A stretch of 64,000 nt of DNA, taken from NCBI RefSeq assembly GCF_003334305.1, contig NZ_QOWS01000010.1; one strand, 5' to 3'. Numbering within the stretch: position 1 is the first letter of the stretch; each line of letters opens with the position of its first letter. A program made the position numbers. This stretch comes from Escherichia coli (GTDB lineage: Bacteria > Pseudomonadota > Gammaproteobacteria > Enterobacterales > Enterobacteriaceae). This document shows positions 38,257-41,200 of this stretch, in pieces.

Positions 38257-41200
38257 TCCACTTAGCGTTGTTACCGTCAATTTTGGTATCAACACCGACC
38301 ATGATGCCGTTAACATCCTGATCATAGTTGATGGTGCCGTTGTCGCCGTTGAAGTTACCACCGAAGTAGCTTACCCATGCGCCGCCGTTATCAGCCAGGC
38401 CATGACGAGAGTTGGTCAGACGAGTACCAACGGTGTCTTGTTCCAGGTTCCAGATATTGGTGTTCGCAGACGGGATGCTCAGTGCCATGTTAGCGTAGTC
38501 GGTCAGCTCCATCTGTTGCAGAACAACGGTGTTACCGCGCTGTTCAGCCTGATAGGTGTATGCACCCAGGTCAGCTTTGTTAGCAGCAGAGAAGGTCGCG
38601 TTGGTGTTGACGTCGTTTACGTAGATAATTTCTTTATCTTTGTAATCAGCGATAGCGCCAGCGCCAGTTGCGTTGTCGATACGAACTTTGTAGTTACCGG
38701 TTGCAGCAACAACGTTATCAACAGAGCTGTTATCCAGTTCAGTACCGTTGTCTACGTCGCCGTTACCATTGATAGTCAGGTGACCGTCAGAGTTCATAGC
38801 AACAATACCGTAACCGTAGTTAGACTTGGAAGTATCCCACGTACGGTCGTTCACCAGATCAGCGTTCAGAACGTAATCGCTGCTATGGATATCGAACACA
38901 CCAGATACTACGTTACCGTTATGGTCAGCGATGTTGCCGCTGGTCAGTTCCAGTTTGTCAGTACGGAAAGCTTCAGTATCGAACTGATCAACGTTCACAT
39001 CCAATACACCACCGTTAGTTACGGTGATAGTATTGGCGTACAGGTTGTAATCAGCCCCCCACCCAGTAGATTCGGTCAACGCAACAGTACTGTAGGAGTT
39101 AATAGTCAGATGATCGGTATCAACGTAGCCATCTTCACCAATGTTCAGCGAAGAACCGTTAGTTAAATCGATAGTATCTGAAGTTAATTTAGATTCCGAA
39201 ACATTAACCTGAGAACCATTATTAACTGTCAAGGTATCAACGATGGAACGACCTGTAGTATCCCATTCAGAACCGTTATTCAACGCTACGTTAAATACAC
39301 CGCTCTGGAAGACCTTGTCATCAACAACACGTTTCCAGTCATTGTTTTCATATGTTGCATCAGGAGTAAGGCTGTTTGTAGCAACATCATACATTGCTGA
39401 CGTTTCAGCAACGTTATAAATTGCCTGACCAACCCACTTGCTTCCGTTATCGAGAGTGAGATTTAGTTCATCAACGTTGAGGCTATCATCAGTCCAACCC
39501 CCGTTGGTATCTTTCACCCCGTCACCGTTGGAATCATGACCATTCGGATCAAAATTACTATTCCAGGTGCTGGTAAAGGCAACATCACCCATCAGCGTTG
39601 AATTGCTGAGGAATACATTGTTCTTCATCGCATAGTCGGAACCTGAAGCAGTAAAGGACATTGCAACATCACCCGGGCCAGCATAATCACTCGGTTCATC
39701 AGAATTGCCAAAGTGACCAGTTTTGCCATAAGTATTGCTATCCAGGATATAATTTGAACCCGAAGTCACTGTGGAATCTTTTACAGAGATATTGTTATCC
39801 CAAGTATGAGATTCGGTAGTGTAGGTTTCGTTGTAAGTATTACCTTGAGATAATGCAATACCTGCAACGCGGGAGTTATTGGAAATATTGATGTTACTTT
39901 CTACATCAAGATTAACAGCAACGCCTTCACTTGTATCAAATGTCTCATTTGTGTGCTTGGTTACATCACCATCTTTATAAGAATCAGTGAAGTAAAGAGC
40001 TTCATAATCATCATCAATAGTAGTGTTAGCAATGTTCAAAGTGAAAACATCACCATCACGCCAGTGTGTATCAACAACCGCATCAGTGTAAAAATCATAT
40101 CCACCCAGATTATTACCATCTGCATCAAAACGATCATAATAACCGCCAGGCAGCATAGAAGTAATCGAACCGTGAATCACTGAATTACTGATATCAAGCT
40201 GATTAGCAGTACTGTCTGCATAATCATGGTTCAAATAATAGGTTGAGATTGTCCCGTTAACGGTATCGCCGTTAAAGGACTGATCGAAATCACCATTGGT
40301 GTTGTTGTAATAGACAAAACCACTATAGTTTACATAGTTGCCATCTACAGTGCCTGCCTTATCCATATGATCCCAATCAAGTGCTGTAACGGGATTATCG
40401 ATATAAGTCCAGGTATCATAGTTTGCTGCATTAGCCTGAGAGGTGATAGCCAGAGTGCAAGCCAATGCTAATTGTGATACTACAAGTTTCTTTTTCCAGG
40501 AGTGCATTTGTCATCCCTCCTCAGGGACGTAATAAGTTGATCCATCAATTATCAATGCATAGAAAACATATTATGTTTCGCGCTAACGATTATGCTGCGT
40601 TACAGACGAATGGTTCAATTATTCTTTCCCCTAAGTCCGAATGTGGACATATATAATTTATGGAGAAAAACACGCATCAAATTGATAAAAGGACGATATT
40701 TCAACATGTTGCAGATAATGTTATTTTTGATACATACGCGTTATAAATATCAAAAACACAAACCAGATAAATATCTTATCAATATACAACAAAGTTTGAA
40801 TAATTCAATTTATAGCAGCACAACCAAACGCCAAAAAATAATAACCAAGAGCTATAAATAAAGATTAAAAATATTTTCAGTGAATATGAAATTATTGCTA
40901 TTTCTATTACAAAGATGTCCTGGCCTCTCTTCCATTCTCTTCTTGTCAACATCGCGACAACTTTCGTAAAACACTCCTGCCCCGCTTCAGGTATACTGTG
41001 CACCTTAATTCCACAAACATCAGGCAGACCATGACAGACTTAATCCAACGCCCTCGTCGCCTGCGCAAATCTCCTGCGCTGCGCGCTATGTTTGAAGAGA
41101 CAACACTTAGCCTTAACGACCTGGTGTTGCCGATCTTTGTTGAAGAAGAAATTGACGACTACAAAGCCGTTGAAGCCATGCCAGGCGTGATGCGCATTCC

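Follow-up and report, generated by a model that had tools for sequence, protein, structure and literature searches.

The AT-rich DNA between ehaB (yaiT/upaC) and hemB of Escherichia coli: a probable three-part divergent control region

The DNA that separates the autotransporter adhesin gene ehaB, also called yaiT or upaC, from the haem gene hemB in Escherichia coli is probably a divergent control region in three parts with no gene of its own. It consists of a promoter region on the hemB side, a compact promoter and leader module on the ehaB side and an AT-rich spacer between them. The region is ordinary in kind, and the silence of its adhesin promoter in the laboratory matches existing reports on upaC/ehaB. 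What is added here is a map at base level, which gives the limits of the hemB promoter, the most probable ehaB promoter and a stretch of 145 bp conserved across about ten genera. Positions are those of the window, by which we mean the whole stretch of 64,000 nucleotides that was analysed (RefSeq assembly GCF_003334305.1, contig NZ_QOWS01000010.1); E. coli strain H15 matches it with 100% identity.

Extent, occurrence and coding content of the gap

The ehaB/yaiT reading frame (968 aa, minus strand) begins with an ATG at 40507 and is intact in this strain, and the hemB ATG lies at 41031 on the plus strand. A first-pass annotation of this DNA had reported a non-coding gap of about 520 bp with a low GC content between the two genes. 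This was correct and its coordinates were exact: the whole intergenic region (40508-41030) is non-coding, measures 523 bp and has a GC content of 0.338, compared with 0.515 for the window. When computed in 200-bp windows, GC falls to 0.245-0.29 at 40600-40899. The AT-richness extends over 39100-40900, including the 5' part of ehaB, whose first 1.3 kb or so have a GC content of 0.36-0.41.

The gap is present in 5423 of 5426 complete E. coli genomes. The ehaB locus has been described as always adjoining hemB, with iprA downstream of it (PMC13248724), and UpaC is a second name of EhaB (PMC8281228). No annotated feature underlies the gap in the 30 E. coli records listed or in the MG1655 RefSeq record. 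The latter record annotates recently added small proteins nearby, for example ykiC and ytiB. Outside the species, a gap of 439-549 bp with a GC content of 0.31-0.36 was found between hemB and the ehaB homologue in all 23 of the other species or genera that carry both genes on the contig, indicating that the upstream tract is no accident of a single strain. Cross-genus comparisons were made on 28 sequences from about ten genera.

The gap had also been considered long for a divergent pair. This is true insofar as the two promoters need only about 145 and 90 bp, but the length is not extreme. On a crude ORF-based gene map the gap is the fourth longest of 12 divergent gaps in the same window, and the gap at 45583-46140 exceeds it in both length and AT-richness (GC 0.29).

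That a small RNA or a small protein of its own is encoded in the tract is very improbable. Promoter-like hexamer pairs are present in this AT-rich DNA, and the earlier statement that it holds only short reading frames has to be qualified, as frames of 89, 74 and 63 codons exist; however, all of them lack conservation, even from one E. coli lineage to another. The 89-aa frame (40592-40861, plus strand) is confined to the K-12-type haplotype, and the 74-aa frame occupies 40779-41003 on the minus strand. A frame of 39 aa (40915-41034, plus strand) overlaps the hemB start with its terminal ATGA, but its codon 3 is disrupted in phylogroup B2, genera other than Escherichia lack it, and it begins upstream of both hemB transcription start sites. 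A small protein gene was therefore rejected, no reading frame being conserved across lineages. A separate regulatory RNA, which the first-pass annotation had thought possible, did not survive the comparison either. The gap gave no Rfam match up to E=10, no terminator-like site was found inside it, and its promoter-like sites were not above those of shuffled sequences (6 versus 3.5 +/- 1.7). The K-12 Term-seq tables contain no transcript 3' end in the gap, SMRT-Cappable-seq lists no start in it beyond the two of hemB, the K-12 data hold none in the yaiT direction, and the central sequence is unconserved.

A phase-variation switch of the adhesin, whether through Ag43-type competition between Dam and OxyR or through an invertible promoter as in fim and UpaE, is scarcely credible at this place. 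E. coli adhesin genes are often phase-variable (PMC6083910) and one conserved GATC is found in the ehaB leader. However, the gap has no second GATC, and Pseudocitrobacter, Lelliottia, Leclercia and Phytobacter have lost this one. There are no tandem repeats, and the inverted repeats are imperfect chance matches of 10-15 nt. Among the matches listed from the 5423 genomes, the gap occurs in one orientation and as a single piece. With a single GATC and no credible inverted or tandem repeats, the switch was discarded.

The two outward promoters

Two transcription start sites have been mapped for hemB (b0369) in K-12 by SMRT-Cappable-seq, at NC_000913.3 positions 389753 and 389775 (PMC6131387, supplementary data). 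Via the K-12 alignment, the former, which is the main start, corresponds to about 41005 in the window and the latter to about 40983. The main start lies 8 nt after a -10 hexamer TATACT (40992-40997, plus strand), a mapped start with a suitably placed -10 as expected of a sigma-70 promoter. The second start is 22 nt further upstream, and the hemB leader measures 26 or 48 nt according to the start used. Mapped starts, cross-genus conservation and a deletion strain together delimit the hemB promoter region to 40943-41005 (plus strand). No good -35 hexamer was found in it; a block that is deeply conserved across genera, ACAACTTTCGTAAAACA (40957-40973, plus strand), occupies that place instead. The hexamer TTGTCA at 40943-40948 (plus strand) is restricted to Escherichia. 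The 26-nt 5' UTR from the main start (41005-41030, plus strand) carries the conserved TTCCACAAACATCAGGCA. The whole hemB-proximal zone (40867-41030) is 85-99% identical within Escherichia, and the block upstream of the promoters (40867-40942) is conserved within that genus only. In our reading, 40943-41030 holds one or two constitutively used hemB promoters, with TATACT as the -10 and a 26-nt or 48-nt leader.

The deletion strain, EM18-18-42, further limits what hemB needs. A natural IS1-mediated deletion has left only 71 bp of native DNA (40960-41030) upstream of hemB, and this strain is viable though the whole spacer and the 5' end of ehaB are gone. The spacer is thus dispensable for hemB.

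On the ehaB side, conservation pointed to a -35 hexamer TTGAAC (40613-40618, minus strand, invariant as ATTGAAC) and a -10 hexamer CATAAT (40589-40594, minus strand, invariant as GCATAAT). Neither hexamer varies in any of the 28 sequences compared. They are close to TTGACA and TATAAT, and their spacing, fixed at 18 nt, falls in the 16-19 bp expected for sigma-70; the sequence between them varies (mean major-allele frequency 0.66). TTGAAC-18-CATAAT (40618-40589, minus strand) was also reported independently by a simple promoter scan. Directly upstream of the -35 lies a conserved A-rich segment, AAAGAATAA (40619-40627, minus strand), which we take to resemble the UP-element consensus. Further upstream, a 14-bp palindrome of the form GTCCG-N4-CGGAC, here GTCCGAATGTGGAC (40635-40648), is conserved in a fixed register, always 16 bp from the -35, with a mean conservation of 0.85 and four variable central nucleotides. 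That it occurs once in the window is by itself no significant finding. Invariant hexamers, a spacer of fixed length but variable sequence and a fixed distance to the palindrome make up a classic promoter signature. The promoter and leader together are 95% identical between the K-12-type and O157/B2-type haplotypes.

From the geometry of this promoter, ehaB transcription is predicted to start at 40581-40583 (minus strand), 6-8 nt past the -10, which would give a leader of 74-76 nt. The centre of the palindrome is located about 60 bp upstream of this predicted start. A 5-N4-5 palindrome at about -60 would be a typical site for a dimeric activator or other regulator, and we regard it as a candidate binding site of this kind. 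The segment 40508-40648 probably forms a self-contained ehaB control module, whose sigma-70 promoter has a spacer of 18 bp, a sub-optimal length.

This module of about 145 bp might, more speculatively, be an undescribed control device for EhaB/UpaC/SeaB adhesins, common to the bacterial family. A dedicated dimeric regulator would then bind the palindrome, CsrA or a structural switch in the leader would gate translation, and the spacer would provide silencing by H-NS. One candidate regulator for the palindrome is IprA, the always-adjacent winged-helix protein with a marginal cNMP-binding-like domain. If true, such a module would link adhesin production to gut signals, for example anaerobiosis, in Escherichia, Salmonella, Citrobacter and their relatives. 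Expression of the adhesins EhaB, UpaC and SeaB, which are vaccine candidates, is very low in vitro, and the map gives specific sites to mutate.

The ehaB leader

The conserved, cis-acting 5' leader of ehaB is the only RNA-level candidate in the gap. It has no paralogous copies elsewhere in E. coli: each genome has it at a single place, and the sole exception is a partial match of 63 nt in one record. As predicted, the mRNA would carry in its leader of about 75 nt a 5' stem-loop, a block with a GGA and a ribosome-binding site that can pair into a 7-bp hairpin. Per-sequence folds place the 5'-terminal stem-loop at 40557-40583 (minus strand), with a GC...GC closure and an inner stem AAACAU/AUGUUU. 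The same position holds a hairpin in other genera too, with a different sequence and length. Its z-score was below -1 in 18 of 23 distinct sequences (mean -1.9), and the stems are weak (-3 to -6 kcal/mol). Next comes the conserved block GCATTGATAATTGATGGATCAAC (40536-40558, minus strand), which contains the sole GATC of the gap (40539-40542) and a GGA at -36 (plus-strand TCC at 40541-40543) found in 27 of 28 sequences. The last element, in the RNAalifold consensus, is the ribosome-binding-site hairpin CGUCCCU-GAGG-AGGGAUG (40512-40529, minus strand; 7 bp, loop GAGG). Its sequence is nearly invariant across genera, 97.6% of its cells are paired and its changes are one-sided only.

The whole leader does not fold unusually well (z=-1.6), and a covariation test of the two leader helices gave no support, as 112 of 500 shuffles equalled it. 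A helix around the GGA, UUGA-UGGA-UCAA, is 86% paired with one compensatory change, a result that shuffles equalled in 112 of 500 trials; RNAalifold favours a competing helix. The conservation of the leader helices could reflect a constraint on the primary sequence or at the DNA level. We searched for an RNA thermometer of the fourU or ROSE type and rejected it. The anti-Shine-Dalgarno strand reads CCCU, which makes three G-C pairs, where a fourU element would have UUUU, and the ROSE motif U(U/C)GCU is absent, leaving only a generic paired Shine-Dalgarno.

The main control of ehaB could tentatively be placed at this post-transcriptional level, with H-NS in a secondary role. Translation would be blocked by CsrA bound to the GGA at -36 and to the GGAs of the ribosome-binding site at -13 and -9, or by the hairpin acting as a sensor. 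Several observations point in this direction. GGA is kept at -36/-37, -13 and -9 in 27 of 28 leaders while the flanking letters change (AUGGAU, AUGGAC, ACGGAC), and the ribosome-binding-site hairpin is highly paired. The same 27 leaders show the arrangement expected of a CsrA target, namely at least two GGAs 10-63 nt apart, one of them overlapping the Shine-Dalgarno. The GGA spacing of 23-27 nt also fits the dual-site geometry described for sopD2 (PMC6347204). In a Salmonella csrA-mutant table, the entry for yaiU (STM0373) gives, for one medium, log2 values of +0.91 and +0.95 that are marked as significant. The flag pair '0 1' of that entry probably means, to judge from the text of the paper, that the gene is predicted as a CsrA target but gave no CLIP peak. 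Like the CsrA-repressed leaders of pgaA, glgC and sopD2, the ehaB leader has several GGAs, one on the Shine-Dalgarno and one about 25 nt upstream, possibly in a hairpin loop, and belongs to a biofilm or adhesion gene; its CsrA site is predicted. Unlike them, it is associated with an effect of at most about 1.9-fold in the Salmonella entry and its structure has no covariation support. Moreover, two of the three GGAs are the Shine-Dalgarno sequence itself, the Salmonella effect remains below 2-fold in a single medium and could be indirect, and K-12 shows no transcription start at all in the ehaB direction. The last point indicates that in K-12 a transcriptional block comes first. A putative site for CsrA or for a dedicated regulator in the conserved leader is a possible lead.

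The AT-rich spacer and the silence of ehaB

Between the two promoter modules lies an AT-rich hypervariable spacer (40649-40866, GC about 0.25-0.29). In this middle zone of about 215-290 bp, with 71-75% A+T, evolution has preserved presence, size and composition but has let the sequence change. When E. coli haplotype groups are compared, its identity is 66-69%, as against 90-91% among members of the K-12-like group, whereas its flanks are 93-100% identical between haplotypes; even where the flanks are identical, the spacer differs by 9-10%. The present strain has the K-12-type haplotype, which is 66-67% identical to the O157/B2 type over the central 210 bp. Between genera the spacer cannot be aligned, yet a tract of 215-350 bp with a GC content of 0.21-0.31 is kept in 28 of 28 sequences. 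No repeats or motifs were found in it, and AA/TT helical phasing was marginal, with z=2.6 for a period of 11 bp, one of 22 tested. Ordinary E. coli divergent regions likewise have two outward sigma-70 promoters, short leaders and no gene between them. Compared with these, the ehaB-hemB gap has about twice the usual length, and its spacer has diverged several times faster than the genes on either side although length and composition are kept across genera. The tract therefore exemplifies a constraint on composition and length only.

We considered whether only the two promoter modules matter and the central tract is functionless filler, and judged this unlikely. The AT-richness and divergence would then come from AT-biased mutation at unconstrained sites, an origin that we also find improbable, as we do deep coalescence with the hypervariable passenger alleles of ehaB. 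The low identity between haplotype groups, the divergence beside identical flanks, the lack of alignment between genera, the absence of repeats or motifs and the viability of EM18-18-42 with its spacer deleted all agree with filler. So does the adjacent passenger domain of ehaB, which is only 45-60% identical between alleles. Against it stands the retention of the tract, in all 28 sequences, despite the turnover of its sequence. Bacterial genomes tend to shed useless DNA, so that the kept size and composition argue for a role that depends on composition. Buttiauxella provides a second argument. Its ehaB homologue follows proBA, away from hemB, and retains an AT-rich tract of about 450 bp together with the promoter, the hairpin at the ribosome-binding site and a site that resembles the palindrome. 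The tract thus travels with the adhesin gene.

The role that we favour for the spacer is in silencing. In K-12 Cappable-seq data, no start in the yaiT direction is listed between 388394 and 389570 (U00096.2 coordinates), and none anywhere in the gap; K-12, the source of these data, has an IS3-disrupted yaiT. A list of H-NS-repressed autotransporters in PMC5012682, citing Allsopp 2012, includes UpaC. Phenotypes of SeaB/EhaB were seen only on over-expression, from which the authors suggested repression in vitro, and anaerobic shock was noted as inducing (PMC13248724). A literature search joining H-NS with yaiT by name found no paper. The missing K-12 start in the ehaB direction and the H-NS repression cited for upaC support the reading of the ehaB promoter as silenced. 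The proposal of the first-pass annotation that the tract holds a silenced yaiT promoter was thereby supported, the invariant TTGAAC-18-CATAAT being the predicted promoter. The opposite outcome that it had named, an active hemB promoter with all else inert, fits the K-12 laboratory data, but this does not mean that the rest of the gap is inert, for the 145 bp next to ehaB are deeply conserved.

H-NS targets typically offer at least 200 bp of DNA well above the genome average in A+T, and such a stretch exists here at 40600-40899 and in all genera compared. The gap contains three matches with at most two mismatches to the H-NS nucleation motif (TCGATAAATT-like), the best being TCCATAAATT at 40655-40664. 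This enrichment is what the AT content alone gives, and such a scan is uninformative in AT-rich DNA. Most likely, 40649-40866 (up to 40942) would act as a platform for H-NS nucleation and spreading. The platform and the AT-rich 5' part of ehaB would jointly silence the adhesin promoter in laboratory conditions, and the platform may also insulate the essential hemB promoter by putting distance to it.

The closest known case is the regulatory region of upaC/ehaB in uropathogenic and enterohaemorrhagic E. coli (UpaC, UpaH, UpaG type). It is the same locus, with AT-rich upstream DNA and laboratory silence, and in O157/B2 it has the other spacer haplotype. H-NS-silenced promoters of the proU, bgl and hlyE type likewise have AT-rich DNA on both sides of a weak sigma-70 promoter, and ehaB resembles them in being silent despite intact hexamers. 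It differs from the usual horizontally acquired H-NS targets in the much stronger conservation of its promoter core and leader, and the part of H-NS here is a presumed one.

A strand asymmetry was also observed. On the hemB-sense strand, A exceeds T and C exceeds G in 27 of 28 sequences. We did not adopt this as a signature of Rho loading or transcription, since a similar skew exists in the neighbouring AT-rich gap of the same window. Buttiauxella shows only the A/T part of the skew.

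The ehaB-hemB gap and its haplotypes

The ehaB open reading frame (968 codons, minus strand) has its start codon at 40507 and the plus-strand gene hemB begins at 41031, so that the gap between them measures 523 bp (40508-41030). The first-pass annotation had described an AT-rich non-coding tract of about 520 bp here, and the GC content was indeed 0.338 versus 0.515 for the whole window, with the lowest values (0.245-0.29) at 40600-40899. The ehaB frame is annotated as an autotransporter in E. coli strain H15, to which the tract is 100% identical, as ehaB in O157, and as the IS3-disrupted pseudogene yaiT in K-12. 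Of 5426 complete E. coli genomes, 5423 carried the gap. No feature was annotated under it among the records listed, nor in MG1655, whose annotation near the gap does include recently found small proteins. On a crude gene map it ranked fourth in length among the 12 divergent gaps of the same window. The tract is unusual, not unique: another divergent gap of similar composition, upstream of tauA (45583-46140, 558 bp, GC 0.29, GC skew -0.23), exceeds it in length and AT-richness.

Alignment of the window with K-12, O157, one B2 strain and EC100 divided the gap into three zones. The ehaB-proximal zone (40508-40654) was 93-100% identical among all Escherichia sequences aligned. The central zone (40655-40866) fell to 66-69% between a K-12-like group (window, K-12, EC100) and the O157/B2 group; O157 and B2 were 75% identical there, and identity within the K-12-like group was merely 90-91%, while the ehaB-proximal zone was identical in that group. 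The hemB-proximal zone (40867-41030) was 85-99% identical. In a sliding profile hemB and iprA, the gene downstream of ehaB, stood at 95-100%. Genome-wide, identities of matches to the gap were bimodal (80-90% in 2243 genomes, at least 90% in the remainder), which reflects the two spacer haplotype groups. An 89-codon frame present only in the K-12-type haplotype was rejected as a gene. In EC100 the passenger is of O157 type and the intergenic spacer of K-12 type, and recombination has therefore shuffled these segments. The EC100 breakpoint lies in the conserved signal-peptide/leader segment. The ehaB passenger domain (approximately 38590-40408) shows 45-60% DNA identity between E. coli allele classes, unlike the signal peptide, translocator and neighbouring genes (95-100%).

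A conserved promoter and palindrome upstream of ehaB

A scan for EhaB relatives, with one genome per species, yielded 30 loci in Escherichia species, Citrobacter, Pseudocitrobacter, Enterobacter, Phytobacter, Lelliottia, Leclercia, Huaxiibacter and Buttiauxella. In 23 of the 30, a gap of 439-549 bp (GC 0.31-0.36) separates the gene from a divergent hemB upstream of it. One sequence from the scan, the 2-kb contig JAJXBQ010000352.1 with a 75%-identical EhaB fragment, had been assigned to a 'Segatella copri' metagenome-assembled genome and is almost certainly a mis-binned Enterobacteriaceae contig. When 28 gaps were aligned, the ehaB-proximal part was alignable and the central part was not. On the ehaB strand ATTGAAC and GCATAAT were invariant in all 28 sequences, and TTGAAC and CATAAT were always 18 nt apart, with a mean major-allele frequency of 0.66 in between. 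Fixed hexamers around a sequence-free spacer of fixed length mark a sigma-70 promoter, and a simple promoter scan returned the same predicted pair (40618..40589, minus strand). A 14-bp palindrome (40635-40648, consensus GTCCG-N4-CGGAC) with conserved half-sites and a free centre precedes the -35 by 16 nt, and this register is constant in every sequence. This pattern is that of a putative site for a dimeric DNA-binding protein, centred near -60. An RNA hairpin is argued against, since the half-site changes are not compensatory. The palindrome occurs once in 64 kb, which is not significant alone; the evidence for it is its conservation. The A-rich AAAGAATAA between palindrome and -35 resembles a proximal UP-element.

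Speculatively, IprA is a candidate for the palindrome-binding protein. Its winged-helix domain is a strong match (PF15977, 1e-30), and a second match, cNMP-binding-like, is marginal (0.0095). Its gene (36890-37558), itself AT-rich (GC 0.38-0.43), always follows directly after ehaB, and iprA is reported to accompany ehaB/seaB in every genome (PMC13248724).

Although the spacer sequence turns over fast, a tract of 215-351 bp with GC 0.21-0.31 was present in 28 of 28 sequences; it is kept for composition and size. In Buttiauxella izardii (locus L013, 3037-6000) the ehaB homologue follows proBA (proB-proA) and does not face hemB. It nevertheless keeps a tract of about 450 bp (GC 0.24-0.30), together with the -35, a -10 of AATAAT/CATAAT, GTCTGTTTTCGTAC, which resembles the palindrome, and the ribosome-binding-site hairpin, whose loop has changed. 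Because Buttiauxella keeps the tract away from hemB, the tract belongs to the adhesin gene and not to hemB. On the hemB-sense strand of the spacer (40649-40940 and its equivalents in the comparison loci L007-L036), A exceeded T in 28 of 28 sequences (AT skew +0.13 to +0.40) and C exceeded G in 27 of 28, without sequence similarity between genera. The A/T skew persists in the Buttiauxella tract, the G/C skew does not, and a neighbouring AT-rich gap in the window is similarly skewed. Candidate causes are a mutational strand bias or a function, for example of T-tracts upstream of the ehaB promoter.

The first-pass annotation had proposed that the gap probably holds a silenced yaiT promoter and could carry a regulatory RNA. 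The first half of this reading held: the promoter is present, placed at TTGAAC-18-CATAAT, and K-12 Cappable-seq lists no yaiT-direction start between 388394 and 389570 (U00096.2), an interval that spans the whole gap. EhaB is also named UpaC (PMC8281228), and a passage of PMC5012682 cites UpaC as one of the H-NS-repressed autotransporters. The second half did not hold. The Term-seq and bicyclomycin tables contain no 3' end in the gap and its centre has diverged; within the limits of the tools used, a separate sRNA gene was excluded. A phase switch was likewise rejected, as the gap has no invertible-element repeats, no tandem repeats and a single GATC. AT-richness does not stop at the spacer but covers the first ~1.3 kb of ehaB as well, and a promoter with AT-rich DNA on both sides is arranged as one that H-NS filaments or bridges would trap; H-NS occupancy here is putative, and H-NS motif and phasing tests on the tract were uninformative. 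The region is of a kind already known, an H-NS-type silenced adhesin promoter sharing its gap with a housekeeping promoter, and the locus has been studied under the name upaC. In work published in 2026 on seaB, the orthologue in Salmonella, the gene was always found beside hemB and upstream of iprA, SeaB phenotypes were obtained by over-expression only, and SalCom data showed induction on anaerobic shock (PMC13248724).

In K-12, transcripts antisense to yaiT also have a 3' end that is bicyclomycin-sensitive (Rho-dependent; NC_000913.3 391117, minus strand), and a small protein, ytiB, is annotated antisense within yaiT (391592-391648, minus strand), corresponding roughly to window 39040-39640 (plus strand). 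Antisense transcription therefore crosses the AT-rich ehaB 5' region toward hemB.

The predicted ehaB leader

Transcription of ehaB is predicted to start 6-8 nt past CATAAT (40581-40583), which would give a 74-76 nt leader in the window strain; in the different genera 69-82 nt separate the end of the -10 from the ATG. A small GC...GC-closed hairpin can form at the leader 5' end in nearly every genus. Its inner stem is constant neither in sequence nor in length, and some of the substitutions are G-U or compensatory. The hairpin folded more than 1 sd better than shuffles in 18 of 23 distinct sequences; the stems are weak. The variable half-to-half distance argues against a DNA operator at this position. 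Next comes a middle block, GCATTGATAATTGATGGATCAAC (40536-40558), and after it a 3' hairpin, CGUCCCU-GAGG-AGGGAUG (40512-40529), whose 7-bp stem pairs part of the Shine-Dalgarno sequence. On the alignment the helices were 86% and 97.6% paired. They gave no covariation signal, the sequences being too conserved (112 of 500 shuffles performed equally well), and the advantage of the entire leader over shuffles in folding was marginal (z=-1.6), so that a function at the RNA level is plausible but unproven.

GGA was found at -36/-37, -13 and -9 in 27 of 28 leaders, with variable flanks around the first. This geometry matches the dual-site repression by CsrA described for sopD2 (PMC6347204). In the csrA-mutant table of that study, the Salmonella orthologue yaiU/STM0373 has log2 changes of +0.91 and +0.95 in a single medium, marked as significant, and a '0 1' flag pair which, judged from the paper's text, probably denotes a predicted CsrA target without a CLIP peak. 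CsrA control of the leader is thus a lead and not a result. What may be new at this locus is the deeply conserved module of ehaB promoter, palindrome and leader; that CsrA or a dedicated regulator controls it seems to us rather unlikely.

The hemB side of the gap

Monocistronic hemB (b0369) transcripts start at NC_000913.3 389753 and 389775 and end at 388690 (SMRT-Cappable-seq supplementary tables, PMC6131387). As the K-12 ATG is at 389727 and the hemB-proximal stretch aligns with the window without indels, these starts correspond to ~41005 and ~40983. The -10 TATACT (40992-40997, plus strand) lies 8 nt upstream of the main start, for which no TTGACA-like -35 was present at the proper distance. 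The -35 position is filled by the block ACAACTTTCGTAAAACA (40957-40973), which does not resemble TTGACA and may be a candidate site for an activator of hemB. The block, TATACT and the 26-nt hemB leader were conserved across all genera examined; a TTGTCA at 40943 occurs in Escherichia only. A 39-codon frame (40915-41034, plus strand), which overlaps the hemB start codon as ATGA, is present in most Escherichia sequences. It was rejected as a gene: it starts upstream of both hemB transcription starts, is absent outside Escherichia and, in the B2 strain, is interrupted by a stop at codon 3. Conservation of the promoter has probably preserved it incidentally.

Strain EM18-18-42 has lost the ehaB 5' end, together with 452 bp of the gap up to 40959, through an IS1-associated deletion. 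The deletion therefore bounds the native upstream DNA that hemB needs, as hemB is intact with 71 bp of it, an outward contribution from IS1 being possible. The IS1 end meets native sequence exactly at ACTTTCGTAAAACA (locus L004, 5990-6001, equivalent to window 40960), and iprA of this strain is disrupted by a second IS1.

On the other side of hemB, the hemB-tauD gap (42006-42110, ~105 bp) is GC-rich and holds a palindromic CCCTCTCCCCAAGGGGGCGAGGG-type element in the window strain, O157 and K-12. In B2 strain AZ159 this gap is only 39 bp, with 17% identity in that 100-bp bin, and the element looks like a short repeat present or absent by strain. The published hemB 3' end lies inside it.
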